A stretch of 15,261 nucleotides of DNA from a virus (taxonomy: Duplodnaviria; Heunggongvirae; Uroviricota; Caudoviricetes): the IMG/VR virus record IMGVR_UViG_2545824644_000012, positions 1-15,261 of that record. The stretch is one strand, 5' to 3'. Under the pieces are notes generated by a model. That model saw only the letters and a program-made list of their open reading frames with translations, had not been told where the DNA came from and did not search any database. The position numbers were made by a program, and so were the translations under genes. Shown here piece by piece: positions 1,422 through 14,044 of this stretch; the stretch's first letter is position 1, and every line of letters begins with the position of its first letter.

Positions 1422-3893
1422 TTAAAAATCAGCCTGACTCGGGAGCAGTTTTTGCCAGATGGCTGAAACGTATTTTGCCTGGTAACGAGCATCGTGCAGC
1501 GCGTTATGGCGTTCACCTTCGAATGGAATAGTCGTTCTTGCGTCGAAATCCATCACCAGTCCCAGAGCAACCATCGTTCTTACATCGCGATCATTGGTGA
1601 AACGCCACGGGCAGGGGAGCCCCTGTCGTTCATATGAACGGCGTAAAATCACGTTGTCGAAAGTTGCACCGTTACCCCAGACCTGAACAAAAAATTCACC
1701 GGAGTTTTCGTCGATAAATTCCCGTAGTTGCAGCAGTGCATCATCCAACGGGATTTCATCGGTCAGAATGGCGGATTGTGCTTCGCGTGACTGTTTCAGC
1801 CACCACTTAATGGTGTCCCGATCGATGACCCCGCCTGCGGTTTCCAGATCGATAGTTTTGCTGAATTCTGGCCCCATCTCTCCGGTTGCCGGATCAAAAA
1901 ACTTACCGGCTATAGCGTTTATTGGCGCATCAGGATTTTTTCCCATTGTTTCAAGGTCAATCATCAGATGGTGCCACAACCTGCTGGTGGATGTGATTTC
2001 ATGATGACCGTTCACTTTAATTAAGGGATTTGCTGTCTCGCCAGTTTTATTATCGCTGGCGTGATACTGATCGCTGCCAGTGTTCTCCTTGTGCAGATGT
2101 TCAGTGCCTTCCATTTCCTCCGGAGCATTTTCCTGAGCTTCAGCCTGATTCTCTTCATCGAATGTTTCCTGGTAGGTTGCGTTCCCCATCACCGCACCAC
2201 AGTCAGGACAGTTGCCGCCACCGGTCTGACCGCATGCGGTGCAAACTTTTTCCAGTTCCTGTTGCACTGCTGGTTCTGGTTGTTGTTCTTCTGGCCCGTT
2301 TTGTTGCGTATCCGGGCTGTTTTGTTCCGCTTCTGGCTCATTTTGTTTCACGTTGGGCTGATTCAGGTCCTCAGCGTCGCGACTCTGGATCCCTTTCACC
2401 CATTTCGGATCATCCGGGTCGCTAATCCCTTCAACAAATTCACCACGTGATGCAGCAAGCAATTTATCGGCGTCAGGCTGGCTGATATTGGCTGCCTGCA
2501 TAATTTTGTTTACTTCGTCAGCGGTAACTTTTACCGGCTCTGGTTGTTCGGAATCTTCAGTGCTATCCACATTTTGCGGTAAGCCCGTGTATGTGCCATT
2601 TTTTCGGGCAAAATATTCTTCTTTTGAGATTTCGGTACCGCCGGCAGCCAGCGCCCTGTCCAGACCAGAAAGTTTGTTTGCCCTGCCGTATTTTTCCCCG
2701 CCCTTATCGGTAAAGACGAAATAAAATGGTCCTTCACGCTCTACAGATGGTTCAGCTTCCACCAGGATTTCATTTTTTTGAGTATCGGATTCTGCCGTCT
2801 CCACTGGAGCAGTTTGTGCTGCTGACTGCTGGAGAGCATTAGCAGAGCTCTGGTCTGTTTCTTCATGTTCAAACACGCCCTTTGTCGTCAGGTATTCGCT
2901 GATATATTTGTTCAGTGCAACGGGATCTTTGTGAATATCGATCGGACGTTCGCGAACAAGGCCAAAAATAGTCTGACGGTCATAGGCAAGTGCTTCGGGC
3001 TGTTTGCGCATTGATGCTGAGATACGCTTCCAGTCTTCGCGATCCTTGTCGATAACCTCATTTGTCGCCCAGCGATGGATGGTACCGTCAATGTTTCCTG
3101 CATCCACATCACCGGGCCAGAGGGCGCAGGCCAGTTCATTGTCGAGTGTTTTCCATGTCTGTTTGTATTCGCGGCGAATGGCAACAGTGACAGCCCCGGT
3201 TTTTTCAGCAGCGTTTTCAGTGTTCTGTTGGTTGACTCTGGCGCGGGCGAGATCAACAACAGACGTGTATTTTCCGGTTTCCTTGCGTTCACCTTCGCGA
3301 CGTTTTTTCCAGATGCGCATCTCTGCCTGAATTTCAGGCCATTTAGCGCCAGGCTCACATTTATTCTTAACCCACCCGATGGCATGCAGTTTAAGTTCAG
3401 GATACATGGCGTTAACTTCTGGCATTTTCATCAACGCTTCAACGATATGTCCGCCGAATGTTGCCATGTCTTCCTGTAGTAATTCCTGTGCGCTAATCAC
3501 CATATCAACGGTGATGTTTTCGCATGTGTCGAATTTAACCAGGACTGCGTTCTGTACTTCAGGGGACAGCTTGTCAAAATTGACGTTCATCGGATCGGAT
3601 TCGGGTTCGACCGGGACAAAGGACGCAGACTCCTCATCCCAGCGGTTTTCCTGCATATATTCGGTATCCCAGGAATCGAGGGCAGGGCGGGGTATGCCGG
3701 GTTTATCCTCGCAGACAATAAATTTATAAGCGCAGTCCTGAGCTGCCGGGAATTGCTCCAGAAATTGCCAGTGAAATTTTGCGCGTGCGCGACGCTCATC
3801 ACCGGCTTCAATGGCAGTGGCCACCGCAACAGCGCTATCTTCTTCTATGGCCTGCTCGTCAGGAATAGCAGCGCAAATAAAGATTTTATTCAT
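1422..3893 (-). CDS. Large RecE-like exonuclease (exodeoxyribonuclease VIII-like) with C-terminal DEDDh 3'-5' exonuclease domain
   Basis: 823-aa ORF. C-terminal ~180 aa carry DnaQ/RNase T-type motifs ([34 protein letters not shown]). Central acidic Q/E/P-rich low-complexity stretch with a CxxC-x8-CxxC zinc-ribbon ([16 protein letters not shown]). Sits where lambdoid phages carry exo/recE, upstream of xis-int. GAGG about 11 nt before the ATG. Confidence 0.7.
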
Positions 3894-3988
3894 TGTGTTT
3901 TAACCTCATTACAGATTTCAGGGTGAACGAATCCCTGCCATTGCTGGCATTTTTAATCCGTTGGTATGGCGTTAATATGGCTGGCGGG

Positions 3989-4177
3989 TTATCCAGCCGG
4001 TGTTTCGTTATTCAGGTACAGCGATACTTTTTTTACCGGGAGGCATTCACCGGGGATTTTTTGTTCGTCCCTTACCTGAATGCAGGATGACTTACTGTCA
4101 TAAATTCCGGTAATCACATTCTGCGGCTCACCCGTTATAAGAAAAACGGTCATCACCAGTGCAAATGCTGAAGTCAT
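3989..4177 (-). CDS. ydfD: YdfD-like small lysis protein (Qin ydfD homologue)
   Basis: 62-aa ORF with hydrophobic N-terminus (MTSAFALVMTVFLITGEP) and EQKIPG.C.PV.KV pattern recalled from Qin YdfD; GGAG 7 nt upstream; ATG overlaps the dicB stop (ATGA). Confidence 0.6.
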   Translation of the reverse strand: MTSAFALVMTVFLITGEPQNVITGIYDSKSSCIQVRDEQKIPGECLPVKKVSLYLNNETPAG

Positions 4178-4362
4178 TGACGTTCTCCGAAAATACCAAG
4201 TTTAATAAGGGCAATTCGGGAAAGAATGGAATTATCATTGAGCAGATAAGGCTCATATTTCCGCATATTAATGGCATCCTCAGTAAACGCTTTATTACTG
4301 AGCAGAACACCAATATCAAAACAACCTTCAGACGTATTAACGTTTGGTAATAACGTTTCCAT
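4174..4362 (-). CDS. dicB: Cell-division inhibitor DicB homologue
   Basis: 62-aa ORF; N-terminus METLLPNVNTSEGCFDIGV..FTEDAIN.RK matches recalled K-12 DicB (MKTLLPNVNTSEGCFEIGV...FTEDAINKRK); GAGGA 7 nt upstream of the ATG; same length as DicB. Confidence 0.75.
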   Translation of the reverse strand: METLLPNVNTSEGCFDIGVLLSNKAFTEDAINMRKYEPYLLNDNSILSRIALIKLGIFGERQ

Positions 4363-4379
4363 TATCGCGTCCTCAACAA

Positions 4380-4535
4380 TGAATTTTGTGATGCAGTGCC
4401 TGGTGCCTCCAGGTGACGTTAACCAGTTAACAATTAACGCCGGATTGTTAGTTGATGTCTGTTACGCAAGTAAAAGACCGCTTGTTTTAACTGTTCCGCG
4501 TGCGCATAGCCGCATTCACCGCATCACAAAATTCA
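4380..4535. repeat. Near-perfect 19-bp inverted repeat pair (tGAATTTTGTGATGC(a/g)GTG) separated by about 118 bp
   Basis: Plus strand 4380-4398 tgaattttgtgatgcagtg; reverse complement of 4517-4535 is tgaattttgtgatgcggtg (18/19 identical). Lies between the DicF-like element and the dicB ribosome-binding site. Confidence 0.8.
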
Positions 4536-4539
4536 CTTT

Positions 4540-4579
4540 AAAAAGGGCGGATATCCATTTCCGCCGAATCACCAGAAAA
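4540..4579 (-). ncRNA. dicF: DicF-like small RNA (shortened variant) with intrinsic-terminator 3' end
   Basis: Minus strand reads UUUCUGGUGAUUCGGCGGAAAUGGAUAUCCGCCCUUUUU. The 5' UUUCUGGUGA and the GGCGG...CCGCCC stem plus U-run resemble recalled DicF (UUUCUGGUGACGUUUGGCGG...GCCGCCC). Position immediately upstream of dicB matches Qin gene order. Boundaries approximate. Confidence 0.45.
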
Positions 4580-4941: not shown

Positions 4942-5094
4942 TTAGTCAGAGTTTCTTGCTAACCAGCGATGCGCGCCAGCTTCGGTTTTAAACGTTTTAC
5001 TTTTGGTATACGTCATCGCGGTAAACGTGCCGTCCTGGTTGGGGAAGACGCCGCACACCAGAGATTCATTGTTGCCAAGATTGAGCATATCCAT
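4942..5094 (-). CDS. DUF1391-like small protein (YdfA/YdaF family)
   Basis: 50-aa ORF below the track length cutoff: MDMLNLGNNESLVCGVFPNQDGTFTAMTYTKSKTFKTEAGAHRWLARNSD; GAGG 4 nt before the ATG; first gene downstream of the leftward promoter, as ydfA is in the Qin dicB operon. Family assignment from memory. Confidence 0.55.
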   Translation of the reverse strand: MDMLNLGNNESLVCGVFPNQDGTFTAMTYTKSKTFKTEAGAHRWLARNSD

Positions 5095-5272: not shown

Positions 5273-5310
5273 AATCTACAAGTAAAAACTGTTTGATGTC
5301 AACAATAAAT
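5273..5310 (-). promoter_or_regulatory. Leftward sigma70-type promoter (-35 TTGACA, 18-bp spacer, -10 TAGATT) overlapped by a repressor operator
   Basis: Minus strand: TTGACA is the reverse complement of 5297-5302 and TAGATT of 5273-5278. Plus strand 5283-5310 contains aaaaaCTGTT-N7-AACAAtaaat, the same half-site pattern as the palindrome in the repressor/cro intergenic region. Confidence 0.5.
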
Positions 5311-5366
5311 AACTGTCATTTTGGACGAAGAAAACTCCCTCATCAGTGGGAGCAAAAGCGGTGGGC

Positions 5367-5654
5367 TTAAAGATTAGCGGGGAATTGTCGACGGGCGTGA
5401 ACCACGTTTACAATTTCAATACCTGAAGTTGTCACCCGGTACAAAATTATGTAATTGGGGTGAGCCACAATCTCGCGCAAACCTGGCACTCTGTCGCTTG
5501 GCGGATATAAATACGGATGTTCGGATAACGGCAGGACGCAAGCTCTTAAGCGTTGCCATAAGCGTTCTGCCGCATCTATGTCGAAACGGGCAATATAACT
5601 AGTTATATCATCCAGATCGGTATCTGCGCTTTCAAGCCATAACACGGGTAACAT
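5367..5654 (-). CDS. parE2: ParE/RelE-family type II toxin (ParE2-like)
   Basis: 95-aa ORF starting directly after the antitoxin stop (TAA-ATG); RelE/ParE-like size and sequence; partner of a PaaA2-like antitoxin. Confidence 0.8.
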   Translation of the reverse strand: MLPVLWLESADTDLDDITSYIARFDIDAAERLWQRLRACVLPLSEHPYLYPPSDRVPGLREIVAHPNYIILYRVTTSGIEIVNVVHARRQFPANL

Positions 5655-5846
5655 TTACTGCTCTCTCCGTTCCTTGCGAATTTTGGCAAAGCGTTCTGCC
5701 ATTCTGCGCTCAACTTCATCATGTGGAATAGCAGGACGTGGATCAGCAAGGCTTGCGGCTACTTTTGCGCGTAACCATTCGTTATAACTGTTTTCTTGCT
5801 CAACGGTTTCAAATTCAGAAACCATTGGTGAAAGGGCTGTATTCAT
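5655..5846 (-). CDS. paaA2: PaaA2-like antitoxin (63 aa)
   Basis: Using the internal Met gives MNTALSPMVSEFETVEQENSYNEWLRAKVAASLADPRPAIPHDEVERRMAERFAKIRKERREQ, near-identical to the recalled E. coli O157 PaaA2. AGGAGG 6 nt upstream of this ATG; the longer track ORF (to 5909) would overlap the repressor gene. Confidence 0.85.
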   Translation of the reverse strand: MNTALSPMVSEFETVEQENSYNEWLRAKVAASLADPRPAIPHDEVERRMAERFAKIRKERREQ

Positions 5847-5875: not shown

Positions 5876-6277
5876 TTACGCTCGGTGCCCCTTTTGGGCT
5901 GCGATCCACCGAGCAACAGTTTCTTCCATTGACTTTTTCTTATTTTTTATTTCCTGAAGCATTTTTTCTTGGTCTTCATCGGGAAATGCACTAAAAGCTT
6001 GGAGCAATTCACGTTGGCGAGGGCCAATTTTCATCGTGTCAGGAGTAAAAATTTGCTCTCCCTCTTCTGGAGGTAATAAAAACCAATGTAGTGGATGCCC
6101 TGTAACCTCGACCAACTTATCTAAGCTGGAGGCTTTAGGTGTGGCTTTTCCACTGACCCATTGCTGAACAGTTTGCTGTGTCACACCGACTCTACGAGCA
6201 AGTTCAGCTTGGCTCCATCCTGTTTCTTTGAGGAGCCTGCTAATTCTGTACATAGATACTTCTAGGGCCTTCATCAT
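5876..6277 (-). CDS. paaR2: HTH (XRE-family) repressor, DicA/PaaR2-like; probable prophage repressor
   Basis: 133-aa ORF with helix-turn-helix (SQAELARRVGVTQQTVQQW); divergent from a Cro-like gene across an operator-containing intergenic region; immediately upstream of the PaaA2/ParE2 pair on the same strand. No Shine-Dalgarno upstream, so possibly leaderless like lambda cI. Confidence 0.7.
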   Translation of the reverse strand: MMKALEVSMYRISRLLKETGWSQAELARRVGVTQQTVQQWVSGKATPKASSLDKLVEVTGHPLHWFLLPPEEGEQIFTPDTMKIGPRQRELLQAFSAFPDEDQEKMLQEIKNKKKSMEETVARWIAAQKGHRA

Positions 6278-6385: not shown

Positions 6386-6646
6386 ATGCTCAATAGCACC
6401 CGTGAAAAAATTAAGCAGAAATACACACAGGCTGAAATAGGACGCTATATGGGAGTAACCCAACAAACTGTTTGGCAATGGTTTAGCTTGGGTATTCCTC
6501 CCAAACAGGTAATCCCTTTATGCCAACTAATGCAGTGGGGGGTTACTCCTCACGAACTCCGACCTGATATTTATCCTAACCCAACAGACGGCTTGCCTGC
6601 TGAGTTTCAGACTAGCACACAGCCAGCGACGGGAGTTGATTCATGA
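6386..6646 (+). CDS. Cro-like HTH regulator (YdaS family)
   Basis: 86-aa ORF; GAGGAGGG Shine-Dalgarno; motif GVTQQTVWQW..GIPP...ELRPD typical of YdaS/Cro-like proteins; divergent from the repressor. Confidence 0.7.
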   Translation: MLNSTREKIKQKYTQAEIGRYMGVTQQTVWQWFSLGIPPKQVIPLCQLMQWGVTPHELRPDIYPNPTDGLPAEFQTSTQPATGVDS

Positions 6647-7068
6647 AAATCAAGCATGAGCACATCCGCATGGCGATGAATGCCTGGGCATATCCTGACG
6701 GTGAGAAAGTTCCCGCAGCTGAAATAGCCCGGACTTATTTCGAACTGGGGATGACGTTCCCGGAACTGTACGACGACACTCATCCTGAGGCCCTGGCTCG
6801 TAATACCCAGAAAATTTTCCGTTGGCTGGATAAAGACACCCATGATGCTGTTGAAAAAATTCAGGCTCTGTTACCGGCGATCGAAAAGGCGATGCCGCCT
6901 TTGCTGGTGGCCCGTATGCGCAGTCACAGTTCTGAGTACTACCGGGAGATTGTCGAACGGCGGGATCGGCTGGTGAAGGATGTCGACGATTTTGTTGCGT
7001 CAGCGGTCGTTTTGTATGACCAGATAAATCGCGGCGGCCCGGCAGGGAATGCTGTGGTGATGCACTAA
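6643..7068 (+). CDS. YdaT-family protein (CII-like regulator / putative toxin)
   Basis: 141-aa ORF beginning MKIKHEHI, as recalled for Rac YdaT; ATG overlaps the cro-like stop (ATGA), matching the ydaS-ydaT arrangement. Confidence 0.6.
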   Translation: MKIKHEHIRMAMNAWAYPDGEKVPAAEIARTYFELGMTFPELYDDTHPEALARNTQKIFRWLDKDTHDAVEKIQALLPAIEKAMPPLLVARMRSHSSEYYREIVERRDRLVKDVDDFVASAVVLYDQINRGGPAGNAVVMH

Positions 7069-11418: not shown

Positions 11419-11593
11419 TGCAGCGGGTGCTTGAGGCTATCTGCCTCGGGCATGAACACCAACGGCAGATAGAGAAAAGCCCCAGTTAACATTACGCGTC
11501 CTGCAAGACGCTTAACATTAATCTGAGGCTCAATCCATGCTGAACACATGTAGGTTAGCCTCTTACGTGCCGAAAGGCAAGGAGAAGCAGGCT

Positions 11594-11749
11594 ATGAAGC
11601 AGCAAAAGGCGATGTTAATCGCCCTGATCGTCATCTGTTTAACCGTCATAGTGACGGCACTGGTAACGAGGAAAGACCTCTGCGAGGTGCGAATCCGAAC
11701 CGGTCAGACGGAGGTCGCTGTCTTCGTAGACTACGAATCTGAGAAGTAA
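11594..11749 (+). CDS. hok: Hok/Gef-family type I toxin (HokD/RelF-like)
   Basis: 51-aa ORF MKQQKAMLIALIVICLTVIVTALVTRKDLCEVRIRTGQTEVAVFVDYESEK with the Hok signature; AAGGAG upstream. The in-frame upstream ATG at 11537 (track ORF) would add a 19-aa extension. Confidence 0.85.
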   Translation: MKQQKAMLIALIVICLTVIVTALVTRKDLCEVRIRTGQTEVAVFVDYESEK

Positions 11750-13670: not shown

Positions 13671-14044
13671 ATGCTCATAGATTTGGTTTTACCTTACCCG
13701 CCGACGGTGAACACTTACTGGAGACGCCGTGGCAGCACATATTTTGTATCAAAAGCAGGGGAGCGTTATCGCCGGCAGTGGCGCTTATTGTTCGCCAGCA
13801 GCGACTGAAATTAAGCCTGTCCGGACGGCTGGCAATAAAAATTATTGCAGAGCCACCGGATAAGCGTCGTCGCGACCTGGACAATATTCTGAAAGCACCG
13901 CTGGATGCGCTGACGCATGCGGGAGTGCTTATTGATGACGAGCAGTTTGATGAAATCAATATTGTACGTGGTCAGCCAGTATCTGGTGGACGTCTGGGGG
14001 TGAAGATTTACCCCATAATGCTTGAAGGGCAGGTCAAAAAATGA
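13671..14044 (+). pseudogene. rusA: rusA Holliday-junction resolvase, apparently disrupted by a -1 frameshift
   Basis: From ATG 13671 (AAGAGG 6 nt upstream) the frame reads MLIDLVLPYPPTVNTYWRRRGSTYFVSKAGERYRR, matching the RusA N-terminus, then stops at 13806-13808. The RusA C-terminus (AVALIV...PDKRRRDLDN...) continues in the -1 frame to 14044. The shift maps to the G-run near 13774-13776. Confidence 0.65.

Follow-up and report, generated by a model that had tools for sequence, protein, structure and literature searches.

Two small open reading frames at positions 3989-4362 of a 15,261-nt stretch of viral DNA (the window) were originally predicted to form a translationally coupled dicB-ydfD cassette for host division inhibition and lysis, which together with ParE and Hok would make at least four host-toxic modules within 12 kb. 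The locus raises the question of whether these genes are what they were taken to be, and whether they would act as two additive toxins or as a division inhibitor paired with a lysis peptide that it restrains. In this study, we favor the reading that the region is the distal part of a repressor-controlled early-left (PL, or 'dicBF') operon of an ompW-adjacent lambdoid prophage, with dicB-ydfD working as proposed below; we assign this reading a probability of about 0.88.

We compared both reading frames with protein-family profiles and with their K-12 counterparts. The dicB gene occupies 4362..4174 of the minus strand (start ATG 4362..4360, stop TGA 4176..4174), a strand that the original prediction left unstated, and encodes 62 aa. 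Its product matched Pfam PF05358 over its entire length (1-62/62; 121.4 bits, E=1.3e-35, cut-off 27) and NCBIfam NF049927 (CellDivInhibDicB; 112.2 bits, cut-off 100), and BLASTP gave 65% identity to K-12 DicB over 55 aa. The ydfD-family gene (DUF1482), identified from its ORF and its Pfam match, lies on the same strand at 4177..3989 (start ATG 4177..4175, stop 3991..3989) and also encodes 62 aa. The results showed matches of this protein to Pfam PF07358 (DUF1482) over residues 4-61 (57.3 bits, E=1.5e-15, cut-off 25), to PHROG 1092 (E=3e-33) and, by BLASTP, to K-12 YdfD (48% identity over 62 aa). Protein alignment to K-12 DicB and YdfD had been set beforehand as the check on the two identities, and the homology was found for both. 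Plus-strand ORFs over the region (e.g. 4159..4350 and 3893..4090) were unsupported by any evidence and were set aside. A PDB sequence search with DicB found no relative of solved structure, and the same search with the YdfD-like protein returned chance matches only.

The pair is already known: the families and their arrangement have been described, and RefSeq annotates both genes with this exact sequence in the prophage of E. coli OkiPb01678. There, DicB is named dicB (WP_000449168.1, 'cell division inhibition protein DicB') and the YdfD-like protein, which we found in identical form on 528 contigs, is named 'DUF1482 family protein'. Being well known and annotated in public genomes, the pair is ordinary. 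Both frames are under purifying selection, with a pooled pairwise pN/pS of 0.24-0.35 at low divergence among 35 distinct dicB and 43 distinct ydfD alleles, the pairwise counts being non-independent. When the window was initially compared pairwise with the alleles nearest to it, dN/dS had suggested an omega of ~1 for ydfD, which we rejected as the product of small-count noise and frameshifted alleles; the pooled estimate was 0.24-0.42.

Conservation along DicB was uneven. Residues 1-33 were nearly unchanged from K-12, whereas the C-terminal half had diverged, with ~35% identity over residues 34-62 as estimated by eye. The N-terminus, METLLPNVNTSEGCF, equals the K-12 sequence except for K2E, and the essential first ~14 aa and Leu5 are intact. 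[quoted passage not shown] By homology to K-12 DicB, the window allele would inhibit division by a MinC- and ZipA-dependent block of Z-ring formation, and the divergence of its C-terminal half is a specific reason for doubt about its activity.

To characterize the stop/start junction, we read it directly in the window. The dicB TGA overlaps the ydfD ATG as ATGA at 4177..4174 of the minus strand, a 4-nt overlap as in K-12. Each gene also has the good ribosome-binding site (SD) that had been claimed for it: the core GAGGA for dicB (4374..4370, in a stretch identical in K-12) and GGAG for ydfD (4188..4185, within the last dicB codons), both on the minus strand and both 7 nt 5' of the ATG. We then compared the junction across 80 viral-contig loci obtained by a YdfD alignment scan, 9 genome loci and several phage records; the number of genome loci was small owing to the narrow peptide pattern used to scan the genome contigs. 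A 4-nt overlap was present in 57/80 viral-contig loci (31 ATGA, 26 GTGA), and a gap of 1-2 nt between the upstream stop and the ydfD start in 18/80. The upstream stop lay within -2..+4 nt of the ydfD start in 75 of the 80, and likewise in 13/13 loci comprising the window and 12 reference loci. An AGGA, GGAG, GGA or GAG core was found 7-8 nt 5' of the ydfD start in 36/36 distinct junction sequences, and YdfD was adjacent in 20/20 DicB-bearing records of the phage collection. Within the variable DicB tail, G59 and Q62 were the only invariant residues, and their codons supply the ydfD SD and start codon. The commonest window-type (PPompW-like) ydfD allele in the IMG/VR sample starts with GTG in a GTGA overlap (L018-L041 junctions).

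Outside Escherichia, the ydfD homologue overlaps upstream small ORFs unrelated to DicB, by ATGA (4 nt) or TGATG (1 nt). A 37-65-aa peptide of the form 'DFARK...QAVRL...LAQKG' is the product of the upstream ORF in Enterobacter and a Klebsiella phage; in Salmonella phage SW-37, Citrobacter phage Omnitron and Apirhabdus, that ORF encodes a 66-aa peptide. These pairs of DUF1482 genes with non-DicB partners lie in L003 (2391-2692), L012 (2307-2680), and L004, L005 and L013 (2301-2698). The non-DicB partner ORFs belong to PHROGs 22279/31129 and 3722, all of unknown function, and Pfam gave nothing significant for the upstream partners from the Klebsiella and Salmonella phages. These ORFs may be partners of DUF1482 genes comparable to dicB. 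The retention of the junction in 75 of the 80 loci and with unrelated partners indicates that the tight junction is a conserved property of DUF1482 genes rather than an accident of the window.

Such an overlap might still be mere genome compaction, with ydfD translation starting by itself at the ydfD SD and the two genes not functionally coupled. The good ydfD SD at optimal spacing agrees with this explanation, and so do two groups of loci. In 17/80, a Trp-to-stop change makes DicB two residues shorter, and an intact ydfD then starts after a gap of 2 nt (e.g. L056/L074 type junctions); in 5/80, ydfD follows its own GGGAG SD without an overlapping upstream ORF (L068 1340-1700, L092). These loci indicate that independent initiation of ydfD is possible. 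Predicted pairing around the ydfD SD/AUG was also only mildly above average (0.69 vs a transcript mean of 0.58). Compaction, however, does not account well for a stop that keeps to -2..+4 nt of the ydfD start in nearly all loci, for the recurrence of this junction in other genera, where three unrelated ORFs take the upstream place, or for a dispensable, variable DicB tail that nevertheless keeps the two residues encoding the SD and start codon of the next gene. We therefore regard compaction alone as rather doubtful, although it keeps appreciable weight. In the five loci with a free-standing ydfD, another short sequence replaces dicB behind the conserved leader. The translational coupling of the original prediction thus holds in part: the overlap, with an SD inside the upstream ORF, gives the potential for coupling but is not proof of it. 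Among the relatives, there are loci with a gap of 2 nt between the genes and loci in which ydfD has an SD to itself and no upstream ORF, so coupling is not obligatory across the family.

To assess what the downstream peptide might do, we aligned DUF1482 homologues from six genera, including Escherichia, Klebsiella, Salmonella and Citrobacter. The YdfD-like protein of the window keeps all family invariants, namely C32, C45, E38-Q39, P60-A61-G62 and the N-terminal hydrophobic helix. It ends ...ETPAG at Gly62 and has no Leu63. In K-12, expression of YdfD alone causes rapid lysis, the protein binds IspG, and cells are rescued by ispG overexpression or HMBPP; the deltaC1 and L63A mutants lose plate lethality (PMC8835842). 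The tail after PAG was variable across the family in our alignment, so the Leu63 requirement may be specific to K-12. Since this lysis depends on cells that are still dividing, co-expression of DicB or SulA also prevents it (PMC8835842). By its 48% identity to K-12 YdfD, the window allele would be a lysis peptide as well, with the missing Leu63 as a second specific reason for doubt.

A different reading of DUF1482 is that the protein is natively no lysis protein at all and is instead a small membrane-anchored peptide, perhaps for superinfection exclusion or envelope modulation, with lysis in K-12 being an overexpression effect that might not extend to the window allele. An AlphaFold2 model built on a 15-sequence alignment (pLDDT 50.5, pTM 0.18) predicted the N-terminal hydrophobic helix at residues 3-15 as its sole element, which is consistent with an anchored peptide, and the model was too poor to judge the proximity of the two conserved Cys. 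The hydrophobic N-terminus and these two invariant Cys sit uneasily with a purely cytoplasmic IspG inhibitor. In addition, the window allele is without the residue that K-12 needs for lethality, DicB co-expression cancels lysis, and PHROGs lists every relevant family here, as Pfam does DUF1482, under unknown function. Against this reading, published work on the K-12 homologue documents lysis, binding to IspG and rescue by either ispG or HMBPP (PMC8835842), and the family invariants are kept under purifying selection. We consider a native role other than lysis unlikely, and retain the view that the YdfD-family peptide is a lysis protein by homology.

The surroundings of the pair are those of an ompW-adjacent lambdoid prophage. 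Over 1.1 kb, the region matches E. coli OkiPb01678 with 100% identity, and related sequence was found in 4729/5426 complete E. coli genomes. On the minus strand, the order is repressor, PaaA2, ParE, ydfA, dicF site, dicB, ydfD, exonuclease, xis and int; the YdaS/YdaT, replication, hok/sok and Q genes run in the opposite direction to the dicB operon. The HTH repressor (CI-like, PaaR2-type) lies at 6277..5876 of the minus strand, followed on that strand by the PaaA2-type antitoxin at 5846..5655 (Pfam PaaA2, 73.7 bits) and the ParE toxin at 5654..5367 (Pfam ParE_toxin, 61.8 bits). After parE come a terminator-like hairpin (5353..5334, minus strand) and a promoter-like site, TTGACA-18-TAGATT (5302..5273, minus strand), which is a candidate PL/dicBp equivalent by a consensus match only (10/12 positions). 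Both sites, like the hairpin at the dicF site described below, are at the positions expected for this operon. The first operon gene is a ydfA homologue (DUF1391) at 5094..4942 of the minus strand (Pfam E=1.3e-29), with DNA ~90% identical to K-12 ydfA. Downstream of ydfD, an intact 823-aa 3'-5' exonuclease (3893..1422, minus strand; Pfam Rv2179c-like, E=9e-62; RefSeq) precedes xis and int. A complete hok/sok locus is present on the plus strand at 11425-11749 (sok RNA, 113.5 bits), with the 51-aa Hok at 11594-11749 (Pfam HOK_GEF, 81.1 bits), confirming the earlier statement that ParE and Hok are carried by the same prophage.

RefSeq records frameshifts in the YdaS-family (Cro-like) gene (6386-6659, plus strand) and in the RusA gene (13671-14044, plus strand), so the prophage may be partly defective. 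Truncated ydfD alleles occur elsewhere, e.g. in L043. The label 'toxin YdaT' at 6643-7068 is disputed, YdaT having been argued to be a CII analogue and not a toxin (PMC8630535). That dicB-ydfD is a decaying cryptic-prophage remnant without current function, as the two frameshifts and the truncated alleles could suggest, is very improbable, given that neither ORF is broken and each keeps its start codon, SD and family invariants, that the exact YdfD protein recurs on so many contigs, that pN/pS is well below 1, and that the prophage has an intact integrase, excisionase and exonuclease as well as intact replication genes and Q.

The pair had also been placed directly downstream of a DicF-like sRNA. 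Alignment to K-12 revealed, at the homologous site 177 nt upstream of dicB, a short DicF-like allele of 39 nt at 4578..4540 on the minus strand (UUUCUGGUGAUUCGGCGGAAAUGGAUAUCCGCCCUUUUU). Still present in this allele are the 5' end of DicF (UUUCUGGUGA), both flanks and the GGCGG/CCGCC base of the terminator. About 19 nt of the DicF body are missing, among them the ACUCC stretch through which DicF pairs with the ribosome-binding site of ftsZ; pairing of the DicF 3' region with that site has been described (PMC5069750). A terminator-like hairpin at 4565..4546 is followed by a T-run, and the allele folds to -10.7 kcal/mol. The Rfam DicF model (RF00039) gave no match in the window at its gathering threshold (48 bits) or at E<=10, and the positive controls scored 76.7 bits (K-12, L023) and 62 bits (L027). 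The location given in the original prediction was therefore right, but the element there is a 39-nt allele that the Rfam DicF model does not match.

RNA duplex energies separated poorly from shuffled controls (z=-1.2 for ftsZ with K-12 DicF), so we used cofold ddG and the published pairing region instead. The results showed a cofold ddG with ftsZ of -6.8 kcal/mol for the short allele compared with -16.3 kcal/mol for canonical DicF, and the pairing of the short allele missed the ftsZ SD. The predicted interaction with xylR was likewise weaker (-8.9 vs -15.3 kcal/mol). The short allele is thus predicted to have lost ftsZ pairing. It was found in 418/5426 complete E. coli genomes (~8%), many of them O157:H7, and canonical DicF in 3969. 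The dicF site upstream of dicB was highly allelic across L018-L097, ~370 nt upstream of the ydfD match, with at least six different 5' tails and loop bodies (examples being L027 1077-1128, L053, L071, L094 and L068); what stayed conserved across the alleles was the 3' flank and the GGCGG/CCGCC base of the terminator. Rfam DicF recognized the canonical form and one alternative-5' allele and missed four other types. This variety resembles an exchange of seeds at an sRNA locus that itself stays in place.

The dicB 5' UTR (4363..4539, minus strand) spans the interval from the dicF terminator to dicB, and its 3' part is very highly conserved. About 100 nt of this leader are identical to K-12. Nucleotide diversity was 0.02-0.07 at -60..-1 of dicB compared with 0.2-0.35 in the dicB 3' half and ydfD; because the first 17 nt of dicB anchored the alignment, only the UTR part of this estimate is unbiased. 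The strongest conservation was seen at 4363-4452 of the window (minus strand) and in the first ~30 nt of dicB. Rfam STnc100 scored 33.4 bits over 4330-4547, below threshold; in L068 the same family passed its threshold with 49.7 bits. The low diversity suggests RNA-level constraint on the leader.

The dicBF operon and its regulation have been described (PMC5069750, PMC10448788): it is repressed in the lysogen, and its expression follows derepression or stress or arises spontaneously in a subpopulation (PMC10448788). In the window, relief of the repressor together with some read-through of the DicF-like terminator would allow dicB to be translated. Ribosomes would end at the dicB TGA, overlapping the ydfD ATG and with the embedded SD 7 nt upstream, and we infer that the one mRNA would then also yield YdfD, in a fixed relation to DicB. 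Inhibition of ManYZ and protection from lambda-type phages have also been reported for DicB (PMC6832061), and the window protein may likewise exclude lambda-like phages in this way. The YdfD-family peptide, as a lysis and IspG-binding protein by homology, would have its killing suppressed by the co-made DicB, because killing by YdfD in K-12 needs ongoing division. All four products counted as host-toxic in the original prediction (DicB, the YdfD-family peptide, ParE and Hok) are indeed encoded here, but the effects of DicB and YdfD are not additive, as DicB blocks YdfD lysis in K-12 (PMC8835842). The pair is therefore better seen as a division inhibitor restraining a co-made lysis peptide than as two additive toxins.

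Taken more widely, a conserved module of two peptides might have the DUF1482 gene at its distal end and an interchangeable proximal partner, the junction ensuring that no lysis peptide is produced unless its restraining partner is too. We put this forward as a speculative extension that is probably not correct as it stands. If true, the unrelated partners would be predicted to be undescribed division inhibitors or antidotes, and in the window the loss of the ftsZ-pairing segment from the DicF allele would moreover separate the module from repression of ftsZ. As a discovery, dicB-ydfD carries little weight, being a textbook cryptic-prophage cassette. Its value lies in annotation, as DicB, the YdfD-family peptide, ParE and Hok are all potentially toxic on cloning or induction. 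The short DicF allele, the dicF-site alleles missed by Rfam, the conserved dicB leader and the DUF1482 partners are minor, unvalidated by-products that may be of use for work on prophage sRNAs and small proteins.

Finally, we compared the locus with known systems. The K-12 Qin prophage (b1575/b1576) carries dicB at 1649609-1649797 and ydfD at 1649794-1649985, with the same 4-nt ATGA overlap. The two loci share the Pfam families, the order ydfA, dicF site, dicB, ydfD, exonuclease (ydfE) and int, and a nearly identical dicB 5' UTR and first ~30 codons. They differ in DicB residues 34-62 and in the whole of YdfD (65% and 48% identity for the two proteins), and in YdfD length, which is 62 aa without Leu63 in the window and 63 aa in K-12. 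The window also lacks ydfB and ydfC of Qin and has the 39-nt DicF allele in place of the canonical form. Its exonuclease, xis and int are intact, whereas the K-12 counterparts are pseudogenes (ydfE in the case of the exonuclease), and its immunity region consists of PaaR2/PaaA2/ParE and YdaS/YdaT, in contrast to DicA/DicC in K-12. Compared with DicF as defined by RF00039, the element of the window occupies the homologous site and shares the 5' end, terminator base and flanks, but the ftsZ-pairing body is gone.

Like dicB, lambda kil is a small division inhibitor in a repressor-controlled early-left pL operon. Kil is reported to block cytokinesis through ZipA-dependent inhibition of FtsZ assembly (PMC3961180). 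The two are set apart by description, Kil acting on FtsZ via ZipA and DicB through MinC, and kil, unlike dicB, has no coupled downstream DUF1482 gene.

The closest phage records were the PPompW prophages of Shiga-toxin-producing E. coli (LC567818-LC567841), with 88.7% identity in DicB and 93.5% in YdfD. The commonest PPompW-like ydfD allele of the IMG/VR sample starts with GTG and lies behind a full-length or alternative-5' DicF, whereas the window has ATG and the short allele. In CP-933P, PaaR2 takes the role of CI, YdaS that of Cro and YdaT that of CII, the PL933P promoter is downstream of paaR2-paaA2-parE2, and dicB is 3' of paaR2 (PMC8630535). Like the window, the PPompW prophages and CP-933P/Sp12 (O157:H7) have the ompW neighbourhood, DicB and YdfD of one allele group, and a division-inhibitor gene 3' of paaR2-paaA2-parE2. 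By this comparison of sequence and gene order, the prophage of the window resembles CP-933P and the PPompW phages, and its immunity and early-left architecture is that described for CP-933P of O157:H7 (PMC8630535).
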